Below are positions 5,621 through 60,150 of a stretch of DNA of 64,000 nucleotides, in pieces. The notes beneath the pieces were generated by a model. The model did not search any database. It worked only from the letters and a program-made list of their open reading frames with translations, and was not told the DNA's origin. The translations under genes were made by a program, and so were the position numbers. This stretch comes from Polyangia bacterium (GTDB lineage Bacteria; Myxococcota_A; Polyangia; Fen-1088). The stretch is taken from NCBI GenBank assembly GCA_035696125.1, contig DASRQZ010000213.1:59048-123047 (forward strand). The letters are read 5' to 3'. Within the stretch, counting starts at the first letter, position 1. The number at the start of each line of letters is the position of its first letter.

Positions 5621-6966
5621 CCCCGCCAGCCGGGAAGGAAGAGCCGGTGGCTCGCCGCGCGCTCGCTGATCGGTAGCAGGGACCACACTGGCGCGTAGAA
5701 CGCGGCCACGATCGACACCACCGCCACGAACGCGACCGTCACCAGAGGCCAGCGCCGGCCGACGAACGCAGCGAACCCGGCCAACAGCACCACGTCGGCC
5801 ACGTAGGCCGGCAGGAAGTGATATATGTACGAGTCGCGGTGAGTCATCACCCACGGCGCCAGGAAGGCGATCGCCGCCGACAGCACCAGCACCACGCTGG
5901 GTCCGTTGGCCGCGACGAATCCGACCAGGCCCAGGCCGCGCCACCCGAGCGGCAACGTTCCGAGCGCTGCCTCTGGCGCTGACGCCGTCGTCGGCTCGAG
6001 CGCCAGGGTGGCGCCAAGGCCCCGCCAGATCACCGCCACCGTGGCCGACAGGGCGACCGCCATCGCCGGCCACCAGACAGCCAGGTTGCCCAGGCTGCTC
6101 ACCAGCCGGACCTGCAGACCGCCGTCCAGACTGGCGAGCGGCAGCACCCGCGCCGGCAGTACCCAGGTCGGCCACCCCGACACCCACGAGTTTTTCATAT
6201 CCGTCGCGCCGCTGTGCGCGCGCAGGAGGCGCAGCGTCTCGGCCACCACCGCGGCCGGCCCCGCTCCGTGGTGGCCGGCGATGCGCAGCCCGATGCTGAA
6301 CAGGATCACGTAGAACGCCGCTGCCACCGCCAGCAGCAGCGCCGCCAGCGCCAGCCGGCGCCGCGCCGGCTGCCGCGCCATGGCCAGCGCCAGCAGCAGC
6401 GGCACCGCGACCGCCCCGCCGCTGAACTTGATGTTGGCTGCCGCGCCGGTCAGCATGCCCGCCCCCACCGCCGTCGCAGCGCCAGCACGCGCCGTCGCCA
6501 GTAGCAGCGCCCCGGCCGCGCACGCCGCCAGCTGACCGTCGAGCAGCGCCACCCGCGAATAGCTTGCCAGGAACCCGTCGCCGGCTATCAACGCCGCCGC
6601 CAGCCAGCCGGCGCGCGCGTCGCGGAACAGCCGGCTGGCGGCCAGGCTGCCCAGCAGCAAGGTCAGCGCGCCCGCCACCTGCGCCGGCATCCGCCAGGCG
6701 ATGGGCCCGTCGCCCAGCGCCAGGATCGACACCGCAATGAACAGCTTGCCCAGCGGCGGGTGGTCATTCAGGTCGGATTGTCCGGACACGTAGCGGCGCG
6801 CGTTGTCGACGAAGTGATGCTCATCGAACAGGTAGGTCGACGGCGTGGCGAAGTGGTGGATGCGGATCGCGGCCCCCGCGACCACCAGCACCAGCACCAG
6901 CAGCCCGAGCGGCGTCACCGGCGACGCCAGTGCCGTGCGCCAGCCGGGCCCGGTTCTCTCGGTCAT
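5617..6966 (-). CDS. Membrane glycosyltransferase, PMT/ArnT-like (GT39/GT83 fold)
   Basis: Multi-TM protein with DEHHFVDNARRY...GQSDLNDHPPLGKL motif region typical of dolichyl/undecaprenyl-phosphate-sugar-dependent mannosyltransferases. Confidence 0.7.
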   Translation of the reverse strand: MTERTGPGWRTALASPVTPLGLLVLVLVVAGAAIRIHHFATPSTYLFDEHHFVDNARRYVSGQSDLNDHPPLGKLFIAVSILALGDGPIAWRMPAQVAGALTLLLGSLAASRLFRDARAGWLAAALIAGDGFLASYSRVALLDGQLAACAAGALLLATARAGAATAVGAGMLTGAAANIKFSGGAVAVPLLLALAMARQPARRRLALAALLLAVAAAFYVILFSIGLRIAGHHGAGPAAVVAETLRLLRAHSGATDMKNSWVSGWPTWVLPARVLPLASLDGGLQVRLVSSLGNLAVWWPAMAVALSATVAVIWRGLGATLALEPTTASAPEAALGTLPLGWRGLGLVGFVAANGPSVVLVLSAAIAFLAPWVMTHRDSYIYHFLPAYVADVVLLAGFAAFVGRRWPLVTVAFVAVVSIVAAFYAPVWSLLPISERAASHRLFLPGWRG

Positions 6967-7033: not shown

Positions 7034-7069
<36 letters not shown>

Positions 7070-12026: not shown

Positions 12027-12109
12027 CACGCCGACGCCGACGCCGACGCCGACGGGACAGACCCTTCCGGATCCAACCGTCGGCGTCGGCGTCGGCGTCA
12101 CCGTGGGCG
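12027..12109. repeat. Hairpin element: (GCCGAC)4 - loop ggacagacccttccggatccaa - (GTCGGC)3-ACCGTGGGCG
   Basis: Inverted hexamer arrays, directly read; lies just 3' of the flgL stop and 5' of the fliC promoter region. Confidence 0.9.
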
Positions 12110-15241: not shown

Positions 15242-16196
<955 letters not shown>

Positions 16197-17306: not shown

Positions 17307-17451
17307 CGAATCCTCCAGCCACCATCGGAGACCAAGAACACAGGGAGAAGCAGAGAAGCAGAGGAATAGGTGAAGGTCTCAGGCTGGCTGGCTAACTTAA
17401 CCTCCACGTTGAACCGTCCTCCGCGTCTCCCTGGATAAGCGTGTACGAGCA

Positions 17452-18200: not shown

Positions 18201-18204
<4 letters not shown>
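17452..18204 (-). CDS. flgH: Flagellar L-ring lipoprotein FlgH
   Basis: Real start at the Met of MRPAVLG...LLASSC (lipobox) at 18204, ATGA-overlapping the flgA stop. The upstream 160 aa of track ORF 17452-18684 are R/G-rich noise. Confidence 0.85.
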
Positions 18205-18896
<692 letters not shown>

Positions 18897-22451: not shown

Positions 22452-22463
22452 GCACCCGTCCTT

Positions 22464-22563
<100 letters not shown>

Positions 22564-22596
22564 GACGGATCGGATCCGGACAGGCTGGTTCATGTC

Positions 22597-23592
22597 TTGG
22601 CGGTCGGGGCCACCTTGTGGTATTCGCCCTGGCCGATGAGCGCATCGACGGAAATCATCTCCTATGCCGGCTGGGCCCGTAACCTGCGCATCGCCAACGA
22701 TGACGTGGAGCTGGTGGTGACCCTGGACGTTGGACCCCGGGTCATCCGCTACGCCACGCGGGGCGGTGAGAACCAGTTCGGGGAGAGCCCCGACCAGCTC
22801 GGCAAGTCGGGCGAGACGCGCTGGATGCCGCGCGGGGGACATCGACTGTGGATCGCGCCCGAGGACAAGACCCGGACCTACGCGCCCGACAACCGGCCGA
22901 TCGAGCACCAGGTGATGACGGCCAGGCCCGGCCAGAGCGGCGCGCAGGTGCGGCTGGTGCAAGGCCCCGACCAGCCTTACGGCGTGCAGAAGGAGATCGA
23001 GATCGCGCTCGCCGGATCGGGCAGCCAGGTCACGGTCGTGCACCGGATCGGCAATGTCGGCGCGCGCCCGATCGAGGTCTCGCCCTGGGCGCTGACGGTG
23101 ATGCCGCCCGGTGGGACCGCGATCGTGCCGCTGCCCGAGAAGCGCCCGCACCCAGGGTCGATACCCGGCTCTGTTGACGCCGACTACTGGCCCAATCAGA
23201 CCATCGCCCTGTGGAGCTACCTCGATCTCAAGGACCCGCGCCTGATGCTGGGCACCCGCTTCATCACCGTGCGCCAGGACCCGCGCGCGACCACCCTGCT
23301 CAAATTCGGCCTCTCGCACGCCGCCGGCTGGCTCGGCTACTGGCGCGATGGCGGCCTGTTCGTGAAATCGATCGACTACCAGGCCGGCAAGCTCTACCCC
23401 GACCGCGGATGTAACTTCGAGCTTTACACCGATCCAAACATTCTGGAGGTCGAGACGCTGGGGCCGCTGGTCACGTTGGCGCCCGGCGAGAAGACCGAAC
23501 ACGTCGAGACGTGGCGGCTGTTCACAGGGGTGGCGGCGATCGGCGACGAGGCGAGCATCGCGCAGAACGTGGCGACGCTGGCCGGCGGGTAG
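22597..23592 (+). CDS. Hypothetical protein (beta-rich, no recognised motif)
   Basis: 331 aa ORF with genome-typical GC3; bracketed by two hexamer hairpin elements; real start may be the second Met (22636). Confidence 0.5.
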   Translation: MAVGATLWYSPWPMSASTEIISYAGWARNLRIANDDVELVVTLDVGPRVIRYATRGGENQFGESPDQLGKSGETRWMPRGGHRLWIAPEDKTRTYAPDNRPIEHQVMTARPGQSGAQVRLVQGPDQPYGVQKEIEIALAGSGSQVTVVHRIGNVGARPIEVSPWALTVMPPGGTAIVPLPEKRPHPGSIPGSVDADYWPNQTIALWSYLDLKDPRLMLGTRFITVRQDPRATTLLKFGLSHAAGWLGYWRDGGLFVKSIDYQAGKLYPDRGCNFELYTDPNILEVETLGPLVTLAPGEKTEHVETWRLFTGVAAIGDEASIAQNVATLAGG

Positions 23593-23633: not shown

Positions 23634-23714
23634 CGCCCACGGCGACGCTGACGCCGACGCGAACGGACAGATCCGGATCCGACCGTCGGCGTCGCCGTCG
23701 GCGTCGGCGTCGGC
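23634..23714. repeat. Hairpin element: CGCCCACGGCGACGCTGACGCCGACG - loop gaacggacagatccggatccga - (GTCGGC/GTCGCC)5
   Basis: Loop homologous to the 12027-12109 element (GGACAGAyCC..GGATCC.ACCGTCGG). Confidence 0.9.
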
Positions 23715-35153: not shown

Positions 35154-35863
35154 CAGCCGAAGCTCCGCACCAGCGACGAGACCACCAGATGCCAGCCGCC
35201 GGCCAGCAGGAAGATCCCGATCTTGAGAGGCAGCGCGATCATCTGTGGTGGCACCATCATCATGCCCAGGGACATCAACACCGACGCGATCAGGACGTCG
35301 ACCAGCAGCATCGGCACGAACAGATAGAGGCCCATGCGAAAAGCGGTGCTGAGCTCGGAGATCATGAAGGCCGGGATCACCACCGTCATCGGCATCGCGT
35401 CCCCGCGTGTGGGCCGCGCCTGACCGGAGATCTCGAAGAAGAGCCGCAGATCGTCGTCCCGCGTCTGCTTGAGCATCCAGTCGCGCAAGGGCCCCTGCCC
35501 GCGCTCCAGCGCCGTGCTGGCGTCGATCTTGTCGTCGAGATAGGGACCGAGCGCGTCGTGGTGCACGCGACTGGCGGTGGGCGCCATGATGAAGACGGTG
35601 AGGAACAGCGACAGCCCGGCCAGTATCTGGTTGGGTGGCAGCTGCGGCGTGCCCAGCGCCTGGCGCAGGAACGACAGCACGATGATGATGCGGGTGAAGC
35701 AGGTCAGCGACAGCACCAGCGCCGACGCGAAGGACAGCGCCGTCACCAGCAGGAAGATCTTGACCGCCGACGAGCCGCCGCCCGCGAGCGCCATCTCGGC
35801 GCCGCTGCGCGCGACCTGGGTCAAGGCGTCGGCGGCTCCGAGCGCGGGGTGGGCTGCGTTCAA
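35153..35863 (-). CDS. fliP: Flagellar export protein FliP
   Basis: 236 aa, FliP family TM helices and conserved periplasmic loop. Confidence 0.85.
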   Translation of the reverse strand: MNAAHPALGAADALTQVARSGAEMALAGGGSSAVKIFLLVTALSFASALVLSLTCFTRIIIVLSFLRQALGTPQLPPNQILAGLSLFLTVFIMAPTASRVHHDALGPYLDDKIDASTALERGQGPLRDWMLKQTRDDDLRLFFEISGQARPTRGDAMPMTVVIPAFMISELSTAFRMGLYLFVPMLLVDVLIASVLMSLGMMMVPPQMIALPLKIGIFLLAGGWHLVVSSLVRSFG

Positions 35864-37398
35864 CGAACCCTCCCGGACAGGCCCAGCGCCAGCTTGCGGC
35901 GCAGCTCCTGGTCCTCGAAGCTATCCTCGAGGTAGTCCTGGAAGCGCGGCAGCGAGACCCGCCCATCGTTGGCGGGCGTGCCCTTGCGGAACAGGCGCGC
36001 CAGCAACCCGGCCTGACCGACCGGGTGCGGCTCGCCCGGATCGAGGCTGATGGCGGAGGTCGGGTTGGGGGCCTCCTCGACCTCGATCTTCATGGTCGGC
36101 TCGAAGGTCATCGCCACCGGGACCGCCCTGCTGGCGGGTGGCGGCGCGACCGCCAGCGGCGGCGCGCTGACCAGATCCGGCCAGGGAGTGGGAGTGGGCG
36201 CCGGCGGCGAGGCGGTCACGGCCGGCGCCCCGGCGGGCGACGTCAGCGTCGCGGTCACCATGGCATCCCAGGCGGCGTCCTCGGCCGCAGGCATCGACTC
36301 GATGATCCGGGCGGCCAGGCTCTCGACCTTCAGCTCGCTGGTGTCGGGCAGCTCCTGGAGCAGGGTGATACCTGCCTCGCTGGAGCCCAGGATCAGGCGG
36401 GTCCGCCCCACACGCGCCACCACCAGCGCCCGCTTGGGGCCCAGGCTGGCGGTCTCGAGAATCTCGATGTGCCGGGTGACCGTGCGCCGCCGGCGCGAGA
36501 AGAAGAAGGCCGCGATCGCCACCGCGAGGAAGGCCAGGCCGGCGAGCACCACGCGACCACCGCCCGCGCTGCTGGAGGCGGGCGGGTTGTTCGGCATTGC
36601 CGTCGGCGTCCGCGGGAGCGCCGCAGCCGCGGGAACGAGGGGGTTCAGCTTGGGATCGATCACGCCGACGCCGACGCTGACGCCGACGCCGGCGCCGCCG
36701 ACGACGGGAGACTGGGGCGCGACCTGGGCGGGTGAAGGAGGCCCGAACCTCAGATCACTGGCGACCTCCTTGGCGGGCGGCGCGATCGGCTTCGGGTTGG
36801 ACCCGGCCATGGGGGCGCCGGCTGTCTTCTTGGGGCCTGTGGCCTGGGCGGGCAGGTCGTCGCCGGCGTTCTCGTCGGGACCCAGCGCCAGCTTGGCCTT
36901 GAGCGCGGCGGCGTCGCTCGCCGACAGCGCCGCGGGGACCACGGTCCTGGCGACAGCGTCGGCCCGGGGCGCCGGCTTGAGCATCGCAGGTTCCTTGGCG
37001 CGCGCGACGCTGGGCCGCGACCCGCCGTCACACGCGACCAGCGCGCGCAGGCCACCGGGTGATTTCTCGAACTCGACCGGACCCTGGCAGGCGCCGTCGC
37101 CAAGCGGTATCGCCAGCTCGACTCTCAGCCGGTGTCGGTGGGCGCGAATCTCCTCGGCGCCCTCGGCGACGTCGTTGTCCCAGGCTCGGTTGGCCTCGCG
37201 CACACGCGCGTCCCGCACGTACAGATAGAGGCGGCCCTCGCCCAGCGTGGCGCTCGCCGCCTCCGGGTCGATCATCGCGTCACCCTTGACGGTGATGGCG
37301 ATGCGTCCGCCCTCACGCTCGGCGCTGACCTCGGAGATGGTGACCTGGGTAACCAGCAGACCCACGGGAATCAGAAGCGCAGCACCGATCATGACCAC
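35860..37398 (-). CDS. fliO: FliO-domain protein with long N- and C-terminal extensions (512 aa)
   Basis: Starts 28 nt after the fliN stop. Central TM (LAGLAFLAVAIAAFFF) + FliO-like region (RHIEILETASLGPKRALVVARVGRTRLILGSSEAGITLLQEL). A 290-aa N-terminal region follows a signal/TM. A Pro-rich C-terminus. An internal GVGVSVGVGV stretch is encoded by a hexamer array. Confidence 0.55.
   Translation of the reverse strand: MVMIGAALLIPVGLLVTQVTISEVSAEREGGRIAITVKGDAMIDPEAASATLGEGRLYLYVRDARVREANRAWDNDVAEGAEEIRAHRHRLRVELAIPLGDGACQGPVEFEKSPGGLRALVACDGGSRPSVARAKEPAMLKPAPRADAVARTVVPAALSASDAAALKAKLALGPDENAGDDLPAQATGPKKTAGAPMAGSNPKPIAPPAKEVASDLRFGPPSPAQVAPQSPVVGGAGVGVSVGVGVIDPKLNPLVPAAAALPRTPTAMPNNPPASSSAGGGRVVLAGLAFLAVAIAAFFFSRRRRTVTRHIEILETASLGPKRALVVARVGRTRLILGSSEAGITLLQELPDTSELKVESLAARIIESMPAAEDAAWDAMVTATLTSPAGAPAVTASPPAPTPTPWPDLVSAPPLAVAPPPASRAVPVAMTFEPTMKIEVEEAPNPTSAISLDPGEPHPVGQAGLLARLFRKGTPANDGRVSLPRFQDYLEDSFEDQELRRKLALGLSGRVR
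36658..36707. repeat. In-frame hexamer array inside fliO-like CDS, encoding (GV)n
   Basis: gatCACGCCGACGCCGACGCTGACGCCGACGCC...; the same GATCACGCCGAC start as the copies at 12024 and 60121. Confidence 0.85.
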
Positions 37399-39593: not shown

Positions 39594-40685
39594 ATGGCAG
39601 GCAGCCCAAACGGTCGTTCCACGGTGACCATCGGCACCGTTCGCACAGGTGAGACGGCGGCTCCCGGCACCGTGCCTCCGGCGCGAGCCACCGGCGTCGT
39701 GCCGGCGATCCCCACGGCGCCGAACGCGACCCGCACCGGCCAGAGCACGACCGCGCCCGGCTCGGCGACAGCGACCCGCAGCGGAACCAGCGCGGCCTCC
39801 GCGCGCGCTACCAAGACGGTCGCCATCGGCGACATGGCGCTCATCCGCATCGACCACTATGCCGACTCGATCGTCACCGACACCAAGGCGCTGCGCCGCT
39901 CCCTGCCCGACGTCGCGGCCGAGGCGCTGGCGCTGTGCACGAGCTCGACCGCCGACGCCAACGCCATGGAGCGGACGCTGTCACGCGACCCTTTCATCAG
40001 CGCGCAGGTGATCTCGATCGCCAACTCGGCGATGTTTGCGCCCCGCATGCCGATCCTCGGCGTACGCGACGCCGTGGTGCGCATCGGGCTCGACGCCGTC
40101 CGCGACGTCGTGCTCATGGTGGTCACCAACTCCACCATGTACCGCGTGCGCGGGTTCGAGGCGCGCGTCGACCTGCTGCGACGACGCACCCTGGCCTCGG
40201 CCGCGGCCGCGCGGCTGCTGGCCAAGGTGCTGCGCGTGGAATCCGAATATGGTTTTCTCGCGGGCCTGCTGCACGACATCGGCGAGATGGTCCTGCTCGA
40301 GCGCTGCGTGCAGGAAGGCATGCTGGTCCCGGGCATGCTCGAGGACCCCAACGACGGTCCGATCATCCGCGACCGCCTCGACTATCACCACACGCGCGTG
40401 GGCGCGGCTCTGTGCCGCGCCTGGAAGCTGCCACCCGGCGTGATCGAGGCGGCCGAATTTCATCACGACTACAAGACCGCCGACGGCAAGACCCGCTTCG
40501 CCGCCCACCTGTGCGCCGCCGCCGACGCGATCGCGGCGCAGGTGATGCCGGGGGCGCACGGCATCTCCGCCGCCGACGCGCCCGCGATCGTCGAGCTGGG
40601 CCTGACCAGCGAGCAAGCCAACACCATCGTCCAGCACGTGACCGCCGCCCTGCCGCTCTTGATCTCGGCAGGGGGGGTCGGTTGA
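39594..40685 (+). CDS. HDOD domain protein with Thr/Ala-rich N-terminal region
   Basis: HDOD signature (FLAGLLHDIGEMVLLE...HHTRVGAALCRAWKLP); start at MAGSPNG (39594); stop codon lies inside the MITE target-site duplication. Confidence 0.7.
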   Translation: MAGSPNGRSTVTIGTVRTGETAAPGTVPPARATGVVPAIPTAPNATRTGQSTTAPGSATATRSGTSAASARATKTVAIGDMALIRIDHYADSIVTDTKALRRSLPDVAAEALALCTSSTADANAMERTLSRDPFISAQVISIANSAMFAPRMPILGVRDAVVRIGLDAVRDVVLMVVTNSTMYRVRGFEARVDLLRRRTLASAAAARLLAKVLRVESEYGFLAGLLHDIGEMVLLERCVQEGMLVPGMLEDPNDGPIIRDRLDYHHTRVGAALCRAWKLPPGVIEAAEFHHDYKTADGKTRFAAHLCAAADAIAAQVMPGAHGISAADAPAIVELGLTSEQANTIVQHVTAALPLLISAGGVG

Positions 40686-40689
40686 TAGC

Positions 40690-40859
40690 CTGACGAATCC
40701 CCGCGAATCTCGTTCGCGAGTCGGTCCGGCGCCGTCTTTCCCGTCGGCGTCGGCGTCGGCGTCACCGTGGGCGACCCGAACGGCGACAGAGCCCGAATCG
40801 CCGACGCCGACGCCGACGCTGACGCCGACGGATGAATCGTATTCGTGGGGATTCGTCAG
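40690..40859. mobile_element. MITE-like non-autonomous element (170 bp) with ~19-bp TIRs and 9-10 bp TSD
   Basis: TIRs CTGACGAATCCCCGCGAAT / ATTCGTGGGGATTCGTCAG (1 mismatch); flanking direct repeat (G)GTTGATAGC at 40680-40689 and 40859-40868; core is a hexamer hairpin (GTCGGC)3-ACCGTGGGCG-loop-(GCCGAC)n. Confidence 0.65.
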
Positions 40860-40902
40860 GTTGATAGCTCACGCCTGACTGGCGACTCGCTATAATCGGC
40901 CG

Positions 40903-41607
40903 GTGATCACAGATCCGCCGCCCCGCGGGGCGAAACGGCGCGCTGAGTTCGTGAAGAGTGAGGGCATCACCCGCCTCACCTTGCCGCCACCCGAAGCGAC
41001 GCGCGCGGCGACACGGCAGCTCGCGCTGGCCATGGCGGGCGGAGACAAGCCGCCGGTGCGATCGGCGTGCGTCGCGCTGCTCGGTGAGCTGGCCCGCTTT
41101 TACGAAGTGCCGACGCCCGAGGTGAAGGTGCTAGGCGTTCGGCCCCACGTGGTCACCGCCGGCGTCTGCACCTACCAGCTCTTCGGAGACTACACGCCGG
41201 CGTTGCAACGGATCCGGGTCTGGATGCGGACGGCGATGCGCGGGCAAGTATCCAGCCCGAAGGCGCTGCTCAACACCTTGCTGCACGAGTTCTGTCATCA
41301 CCTGGACGCCACTCGACTCGGCTGCCCCGACAGCCCGCACACCCGTGGCTTCTACACGCGCGTCGATCACCTCTACCATTTCGCGCTCGCGACCCCGGAA
41401 CCGGCGCGGCGCCCGTTGCACTGGGTCAAACGCGGCACGCGCTGGCAGATCGACTGGCAGCGCTCGCGCACCCGAGCCGGACTGGCTCCATCATCCATGG
41501 TCGCCACGATCGTGACGACATCAAACAGCGCTGGCGCGCGGATGGACGCAGGCGCGCAGGCAGCGGACGATTCGAACGATCAACCGAACACGCGACCGCT
41601 GGACTAA
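40903..41607 (+). CDS. YgjP/DUF45-like putative zinc metallohydrolase
   Basis: HEFCHHL...PHTRGFYTRVD (HExxHxxxxxH...FW-like) motif; GTG start; TATAAT hexamer 7 nt upstream. Confidence 0.5.
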   Translation: MITDPPPRGAKRRAEFVKSEGITRLTLPPPEATRAATRQLALAMAGGDKPPVRSACVALLGELARFYEVPTPEVKVLGVRPHVVTAGVCTYQLFGDYTPALQRIRVWMRTAMRGQVSSPKALLNTLLHEFCHHLDATRLGCPDSPHTRGFYTRVDHLYHFALATPEPARRPLHWVKRGTRWQIDWQRSRTRAGLAPSSMVATIVTTSNSAGARMDAGAQAADDSNDQPNTRPLD

Positions 41608-53375: not shown

Positions 53376-53444
53376 CGGAGATCGGGGTCCATGGGCGGCG
53401 CTCCTGAAGGATGAGGGAAGCGTACCGCGTTTGAGGGGGAATTC

Positions 53445-53570
53445 CCGTCGGCGTCGGCGTCGGCGTCAGCGTGGGCGACCGGAAGCGGGAACGGAGCCGG
53501 AATCGCCGACGCCGACGCCGACGCCGACGCTGACGCCGACGGATCGATCGCATTCGTGGGATTCATCGGC
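53445..53570. repeat. Degenerate copy of the MITE-like hexamer hairpin element
   Basis: (GTCGGC)3-GTCAGCGTGGGCG-loop-(GCCGAC)5. Right end GGATCGATCGCATTCGTGGGATTCATC is homologous to the 40690-40859 right TIR. No clear TSD. Confidence 0.7.
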
Positions 53571-60093: not shown

Positions 60094-60150
60094 GTGCGCC
60101 CCACGTGCGCCCCACGTGCTCCGATCACGCCGACGCTGACGCCGACGGGG
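60094..60150. repeat. Tandem 11-mer (GTGCGCCCCAC x2) abutting a GATCACGCCGACGCTGACGCCGACGG hexamer module
   Basis: Directly read, intergenic between the kinase stop and the next gene. Confidence 0.85.

Follow-up and report, generated by a model that had tools for sequence, protein, structure and literature searches.

Background

The described bacterial MITEs, or miniature inverted-repeat transposable elements, include Nezha of cyanobacteria, which is paired with the insertion sequence ISNpu3, Chunjie of Geobacter, and QMITE2 of Coxiella, whose truncated copies lose their ends and come to resemble repetitive extragenic palindromic (REP) sequences (PMC3184786, PMC10969869). BrickBuilt of Porphyromonas gingivalis is described as a minisatellite within a MITE (PMC4596501). 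Members of the IS10 subgroup, within the IS4 family of insertion sequences (IS), are 1200–1350 bp long, have 5'-CT ends and are flanked by a 9-bp direct repeat (PMC2266710, Table 1). The transposase of the subgroup is a DDE enzyme with a YREK motif. Here, we analyze a 170-bp element found in 64,000 nucleotides of a Polyangia (Myxococcota) genome (assembly GCA_035696125.1, contig DASRQZ010000213.1, positions 59,048 to 123,047), a stretch hereafter called the window. The element lies directly behind a gene for an HDOD-domain protein, and we read it, with a probability of about 0.88, as a MITE, that is, a non-autonomous derivative of the IS10 subgroup that inserted at this site and duplicated its target.

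Architecture of the element

The element spans window positions 40690–40859 and is bounded by 19-bp terminal inverted repeats that are complementary at 18 of 19 positions, with a single mismatch. Both ends open with CTGACG and have the 5'-CT termini of the IS10 subgroup; in search form, the end reads CTGACGAATCCCCRCGAAT. At up to three mismatches, the window holds two matches to the terminal repeat, both of them the element's own ends, against a chance expectation of 0.04, and a scan allowing up to five mismatches disclosed no further site in the 64 kb. A perfect 9-bp direct repeat, GTTGATAGC, abuts the element on both sides; it occurs three times in the window, where 0.11 occurrences are expected. 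From left to right, window 40680–40868 reads GGTTGATAGC, CTGACGAATCCCCGCGAAT ... ATTCGTGGGGATTCGTCAG, GTTGATAGC. An earlier note, made from the sequence alone, had described an element of 170 bp, terminal inverted repeats of 19 bp and a flanking direct repeat here, all of which are present. The repeat, which it gave as 9–10 bp, can be stated more closely: a repeat search returns the 10-nt GGTTGATAGC, but on the right side its additional G already belongs to the terminal repeat, as the final base, so that the target duplication itself measures 9 bp.

The interior is built around a hairpin formed by two inverted arrays of the hexamer GTCGGC, with arms of 34 nt each that are 88% complementary. 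Element positions 1–48 are unique within the window by BLAST of the element against it, and the motif CCGTCTTTC of the left subterminal segment also stands ahead of hexamer arrays at 15.7k, 18.8k and 22.5k. As single-stranded DNA, the 170 nt have a predicted folding energy of −69.5 kcal/mol (z = −8.2 versus shuffles); as RNA, the element plus its flanks is predicted to fold at −137 kcal/mol (z = −9.7). The window as a whole has a G+C content of 69.5%. The earlier note had judged the element too short for a transposase and hence non-autonomous. This agrees with what we find: the element has no coding capacity, and tblastn detected no IS4-family transposase in the 64-kb window (best E = 0.028). 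A search of the window against Rfam yielded nothing at the gathering threshold, and only sub-threshold chance matches in 40500–41000. Between 40300 and 41300, there is no terminator-like site and no consensus promoter; the hairpin is followed by ATGAATCG..., without a T-run.

Ends shared with the IS10 subgroup

The end sequence CTGACGAATCCCCACGAAT is identical at 19/19 positions to one terminus of insertion sequences in several bacterial lineages. These were found by scanning a collection of 185,579 species genomes (596 Gb) with the pattern ATTCGYGGGN{0,1}ATTCRTCRG, which is too degenerate for 596 Gb, so that most of the approximately 120 matches listed are due to chance. The exact right-end 19-mer ATTCGTGGGGATTCGTCAG makes up 26 of these listed matches, against our own chance estimate of about two per variant. 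In every case, the inner side of the exact 19-mer is conserved within groups of loci and the sequences diverge straight after ...GTCAG, and in several cases a contig stops about 100 nt from the match, a pattern characteristic of the end of a repeated mobile element. The hosts include Rheinheimera, Arsukibacterium, Pseudidiomarina, Halomonas, Marinobacter, Modicisalibacter, Psychrobium, Psychromonas, Thioalkalispiraceae and a metagenome-assembled genome (MAG) of Verrucomicrobiae. Among the matches listed, an IS10-like transposase gene adjoins the match at 18 loci, and full elements are seen at nine, eight of them 1,321–1,360 bp and one 1,551 bp long, with an CTGAGGGATCCCC-like sequence at the other end.

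Two of the transposases were examined (409 and 403 aa). Both match NCBIfam NF033591, IS4 family transposase (E ~1e-97), and Pfam DDE_Tnp_1. The ends are conserved to the base, though these two proteins are only 34–39% identical to the IS10/ISVsa5 transposase over 365–380 aa; because the same ends go with such divergent enzymes, the ends alone cannot single out the partner of the present element. Perfect 9-bp duplications flank three full elements with the identical 19-mer (L045, L108, L114), and a fourth element has a duplication matching at 8/9. For comparison, the ends of IS10 itself, read from an Escherichia coli chromosome, are CTGATGAATCCCCTAATGA and CTGAGAGATCCCCTCATAA (starting CTGATGAATCCCC... 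and CTGAGAGATCCCC...), and its 9-bp duplication there is GGCCAAGCT. Over the first 13 bp, the ends of our element agree with the IS10 end CTGATGAATCCCC at 12 positions.

The two ends of the full-length elements are not alike. They differ at 3–4 of 19 positions, one being of the type CTGAGGGATCCCC..., which holds GATC, and the other of the type CTGACGAATCCCC... (L008, L074, L114, L091 and others). The CTGACGAATCCCC type is conserved to the base across full-length elements, and it is this type that the 170-bp element has at both termini.

Two further sets of matches to the scan pattern deserve mention. The 18-mer ATTCGTGGGATTCGTCAG, from loci in Planctomycetota and Verrucomicrobiota, was considered as an IS end and rejected, as it belongs to an unrelated ATTCGT-periodic motif. 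This motif, ATTCGTGGGATTCGTCAGATTCGTGG, has a 9-nt ATTCGT periodicity and stands in AT-rich, intergenic-looking sequence of Schlesneria and other Planctomycetota or Verrucomicrobiota (L027, L033, L049, L065, L072, L089, L092); although it fits the scan pattern, it has no relation to IS10 ends. In a Myxococcota MAG (RA.bin128, L083; 3810–4283 and 4513–5712), a truncated IS10-like relic has kept the end CTGATGAATCCCCACGAAT and ~100 N-terminal transposase residues; its neighbor is a 399-aa open reading frame (ORF) that lacks a Pfam hit but contains the HUH-like motif SNHAHLL. This relic shows only that IS10-like elements reach Myxococcota. A protein search with its truncated ORF returned the ORF itself as the sole match and no Myxococcota partner.

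Insertion site and orthologous loci without the element

The start of the HDOD gene at 39594 was set by alignment to a 92%-identical ortholog (P0001). The gene ends in GGT TGA, its final codon and stop (40680–40685), and overlaps the left copy of the duplication, so that the TGA (40683–40685) stands inside the left GTTGATAGC, as the earlier note had observed. That note also placed the insertion exactly at the stop codon. The stop is indeed within the duplicated 9 bp, but the element opens 4 nt beyond it and the ORF is unchanged. Because the stop codon is kept in the left copy, the insertion is neutral for the HDOD protein, which it leaves unaltered. On the other side, 43 nt separate the element from the next gene (40903–41607), which is on the same strand. 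The insertion has placed a very stable predicted hairpin between the two genes; an effect of this hairpin on read-through, mRNA stability or expression is conjecture.

The closest HDOD orthologs available (loci L001–L006) have 80–93% nucleotide identity within the gene and the same neighborhood, bordered by flagellar genes to one side and by a B12-binding radical SAM gene to the other. None of these six orthologous loci has the element. With the element and one copy of GTTGATAGC removed, the window reads GGTTGA---TAGCTCACGCCTGAC, and the closest relative, L002, reads GGTTGACCGTCGCTCACCGCTGAC at that point; the sequences from the two flanks of the element are contiguous and colinear in L002. 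The gene end GGTTGA is conserved in L002 and L004, and its GTTGA recurs on the far side of the element, so the right GTTGATAGC is the copy of the left and the repeat is a true target duplication. In an allele without the element, the expected direct join is GGTCGGTTGATAGCTCACGCC. When the HDOD protein was looked up by exact match, under each of three alternative starts, no record was returned, and neither a second assembly of the left junction nor an empty-site allele was found in this way. A recent insertion is suggested by the perfect duplication, by the 18/19 agreement between the terminal repeats and by the lack of the element in relatives, and it is on these features that the description as active or recently active in the earlier note rests.

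In all the relatives, a gene of unknown function (136/170 aa) separates the HDOD gene from the 209/220-aa gene (L001 1688–2405; L004 11054–11771). The window is without it (40869–40902), with the junction near 40880–40885, some 15 bp beyond the right end of the element. The element was considered as the cause of this nearby loss, but the fact that its duplication is intact speaks against a deletion promoted by this copy.

A truncated second copy and the hexamer arrays

Arrays resembling (GTCGGC)3 occur at nine other loci of the window (43 matches versus 0.15 expected), in line with the count of about nine in the earlier note. With the element included, there are 13 arms at 10 loci, or roughly one locus per 6 kb, mostly intergenic. 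Five loci have inverted array pairs, in both head-to-head and tail-to-tail arrangements, and the arrays have in common flanks such as CCGTCTTTCC, GTCA(C/G)CGTGGGCG and GATCGATC. No hexamer array was found in 53 kb of sequence from the relatives of 80–93% identity, and the modules at 22.5k and 23.6k are missing from relatives of 86–87% identity.

One of these loci, 53441–53569, is more closely related to the element than the rest. It matches at ~90% identity over 94–118 bp, from just left of the hairpin to the right end, which is preserved in decayed form; a left end and a target duplication are both missing. The sequence TTGAGGGGGAATTCCC was tried as a degenerate left end of this copy (against CTGAGGAATCCCC) and rejected, as the match requires two indels and has no flanking duplication. 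Since the junction between hairpin and right end is shared, the element already had the hairpin prior to its last moves. In the right arm of the same copy (53504–53509), the window and a contig of the same population (L142) differ by one hexamer, at 99.84% identity over 6.3 kb, from which it follows that the arrays change length by slippage.

At the nine other loci, none of the terminal repeats of the element was found, and the eight besides 53441–53569 share with it only the arm, over 35 bp or less by BLAST. The proposal of a MITE family seeded by this module, made in the earlier note, is not borne out by these comparisons: two of the loci are coding, and the truncated copy is the sole real relative. 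Instead, the modules are best read, on sequence grounds, as a lineage-specific, REP-like family of microsatellite palindromes, akin to bacterial interspersed mosaic elements (BIMEs), that the element carries and did not seed.

Two of the arrays lie within flagellar genes. The array at 18795–18824 (ORF 18201–18896, minus strand) encodes ADADADADAD, a stretch that immediately follows the signal peptide in a FlgA-like protein; a degenerate precursor is found in the same place in an 87% relative (L139), and this array looks like a local microsatellite expansion. The array at 36664–36699 (ORF 35860–37398, minus strand) encodes GVGVSVGVG; in the FliO-like protein concerned, these residues belong to an insert in a linker, which is lineage-specific and absent from relatives.

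In the region of L139 orthologous to window 22453–22608, a 7-mer array, (TCCGAGG)n, stands at 5923–5974, where the window has a hexamer hairpin after a stop codon. In this clade, stop codons may recurrently be followed by short GC-rich arrays, with units that are lineage-specific. A metagenome scan with a pattern for the junction of hairpin and right end returned 16 chance matches in coding sequence and no arrays; it missed the contig L142 (Ga0376046_0007353), which bears the pattern, and was therefore uninformative.

It is conceivable, if unlikely, that the (GTCGGC)n modules have been spread in part by IS10-type mobilization, with the MITE as the mobile form and hairpins without terminal repeats (53k, perhaps others) as its decay products. 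In that case, a cut-and-paste DDE transposase would have seeded a REP-like family that later evolved by slippage, including inside flagellar genes.

Features of the locus and of related sequences in the window (window coordinates)
Feature	Position	Strand	Remarks
HDOD-domain gene, 363 aa	39594–40685	+	Pfam HDOD E = 1.7e-38
Left target-site duplication copy	40681–40689		GTTGATAGC
Left terminal inverted repeat	40690–40708	+	CTGACGAATCCCCGCGAAT; matches IS10-subgroup ends
Left subterminal segment	40709–40740	+	Stem-loop CTCG-TTCG-CGAG at 40709–40720; motif CCGTCTTTC
Core hairpin, left arm	40741–40774	+	(GTCGGC)3, then GTCACCGTGGGCGA
Core hairpin, loop (23 nt)	40775–40797	+	Homologous to loop of 53k copy
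Core hairpin, right arm	40798–40831	+	(GCCGAC)n array
Right subterminal spacer (9 nt)	40832–40840	+	ATGAATCGT; kept in 53k copy as ATCGATCGC
Right terminal inverted repeat	40841–40859	+	ATTCGTGGGGATTCGTCAG; 19/19 identical to terminus of full-length IS10-subgroup elements
Right target-site duplication copy	40860–40868		GTTGATAGC; repeats GTTGA of conserved HDOD gene end; also in assembly L141
Downstream gene, 234 aa	40903–41607	+	No Pfam hit; ortholog of 209/220-aa gene of relatives
Truncated second copy	53441–53569	+	Hairpin, loop, right spacer, decayed right end ATTCGTGGGATTCATCGG at 53552–53569
Hexamer array loci	7036–7065, 12030–12102, 15731–15772, 18795–18824, 22468–22561, 23641–23714, 36664–36699, 53447–53540, 60129–60146		(GTCGGC)n / (GCCGAC)n

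Origin of the element

The ends and duplication length of the IS10 subgroup, together with the absence of coding capacity, indicate a non-autonomous element of IS10-type parentage, and the colinear loci without it fit the complete MITE with target-site duplication that the earlier note had proposed. By analogy with IS10/Tn10, we infer that an IS10-type DDE transposase encoded elsewhere would bind both CTGACGAATCCCC(A/G)CGAAT ends in trans, excise the element by cut-and-paste and join it to a target whose strands are cut 9 bp apart, a stagger whose repair would yield the two copies of GTTGATAGC. The cargo is an inverted pair of (GTCGGC)n arrays, which belong to a repeat of high abundance in the lineage.

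Several observations count against an IS10-derived MITE. The 64-kb window contains no autonomous partner, and the 'family' seen within it consists of two members, one complete and one truncated. The classical IS10 hot-spot consensus NGCTNAGCN, which is a preference and no requirement, specifies six positions, and the target 9-mer GTTGATAGC fits none of them; the E. coli IS10 duplication GGCCAAGCT fits five of the six, and the duplications of the full-length relatives do not fit. Moreover, the loci without the element come from relatives that are only 80–93% identical and have an extra gene downstream, and none is a strict isogenic empty-site allele. The comparison with an uninserted strain that the earlier note had called for is answered to that extent: all six loci are without the element and L002 is colinear, but the strains are not isogenic.

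The ends and the duplication would look identical if a full-length IS10-type IS had inserted here and later lost its interior and gained the hairpin, such that the 170-bp form itself never transposed; a second complete copy, which would speak for transposition of the short form, was not found in the window. However, the copy at 53441–53569 shares the hairpin, the loop, the 9-nt spacer and the right end, and because it has both the interior and the right end in common with the element, the miniature architecture predates the separation of the two. The ends of the element are also of the same type, unlike the dissimilar ends of full-length elements, and decay in place is a distinctly unlikely origin. 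The dispersed palindromic family to which the core belongs, with its 13 arms, and the lack of any Rfam match, terminator or promoter signal in the scanned region would suit a REP/BIME-like extragenic palindrome that is no transposon at all, its outer repeats having arisen by chance or by local duplication. This explanation is effectively refuted, and we consider it very improbable: the outer repeat agrees at 19/19 positions with the ends of elements that carry a transposase in unrelated bacteria, the direct repeat abuts both ends at exactly the length typical of the subgroup, and no other module has these ends.

Least credible is an assembly artefact in which repeats of a MAG were misjoined into an apparent element. 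The window does come from a MAG, and short-read contigs do break at hexamer arrays, a behavior relevant to the annotation of such MAGs. A protein encoded in the window is 100% identical to HET6150520.1 (locus tag VFH68_23475) of a Polyangia MAG. Contigs of the same population are available from JGI sample 3300036853 (L138, 99.88% identical, and L142, 99.84%) and from the Logan assembly of SRR11742809 (L141 and L143, both 100% identical). L141 starts at window 40832, directly after the right hairpin arm, and is 100% identical onward, with the right terminal repeat, the right GTTGATAGC and the flank unchanged. Since a separate assembly reproduces them, the right end and the right duplication copy are no assembly artefact of this record. 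The structure is also internally consistent, and its flanks are colinear with those of relatives.

The flagellar gene cluster

The region left of the HDOD gene (window ~16000–39400), like the relatives' loci L004–L006 and L139, contains a large flagellar gene cluster in a Polyangia (Myxococcota) genome. Its genes encode FlgA/F/G/H/I-like proteins, FliJ, FliL, FliM, FliN, FliO, FliP, FliQ, FliR, FlhB, FlhA and an FlhF-like protein. Cultured members of the group are known for gliding rather than flagella. Within the cluster, an AG-rich stretch of ~78 bp (AGACCAAGAACACAGGGAGAAGCAGAGAAGCAGAGGAATAGG..., window 17330–17407) is missing from the orthologous intergenic region of L139.

Significance and comparison with known systems

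The element is a clean but ordinary, textbook bacterial MITE, of a well-known kind and here IS10-derived in Polyangia; in the literature searched, no IS10-derived MITE was found described for Myxococcota. As such, it would mark recent transposition in an uncultured soil lineage of Polyangia, and it predicts an active IS10-subgroup transposase with CTGACGAATCCCC ends in the genome or its community. It also offers a worked example of a MITE that has a host-specific microsatellite hairpin as cargo.

Like Nezha, Chunjie and QMITE2, the element has terminal repeats shared with an IS, direct repeats, a stable predicted hairpin and both filled and empty sites, and its placement is likewise intergenic or in the 3' region of an ORF, leaving genes unbroken; it differs in sequence, in its host (phylum Myxococcota, class Polyangia) and in that one complete and one truncated copy are seen here (PMC3184786, PMC10969869). 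With BrickBuilt, it has in common a tandem short-repeat array inside a MITE, the number of units varying here by one hexamer (53k); by contrast, the present element has two inverted arrays that form a hairpin stem, and such arrays also occur without MITE ends (PMC4596501).

The core resembles REP, BIME and REPIN sequences in being an inverted doublet of a short GC-rich unit that is dispersed and mostly intergenic. However, the unit is here a hexamer microsatellite that is prone to slippage and is also expanding in coding sequence. REPINs have neither the terminal inverted repeats of DDE-type insertion sequences nor a 9-bp duplication, and their mobilizing enzyme is RAYT, an HUH tyrosine transposase. 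The nearest likeness of the outer parts is to IS10/Tn10, ISVsa5 and ISEc29-like elements, with which the element shares 5'-CT ends, 12 of the 13 positions of the IS10 end and the 9-bp duplication. It departs from them in its length of 170 bp, as against 1.2–1.35 kb, in having no transposase gene and two ends of the same type, in a target 9-mer that is off the hot-spot consensus, and in an interior that consists of a host-specific hexamer-array hairpin.

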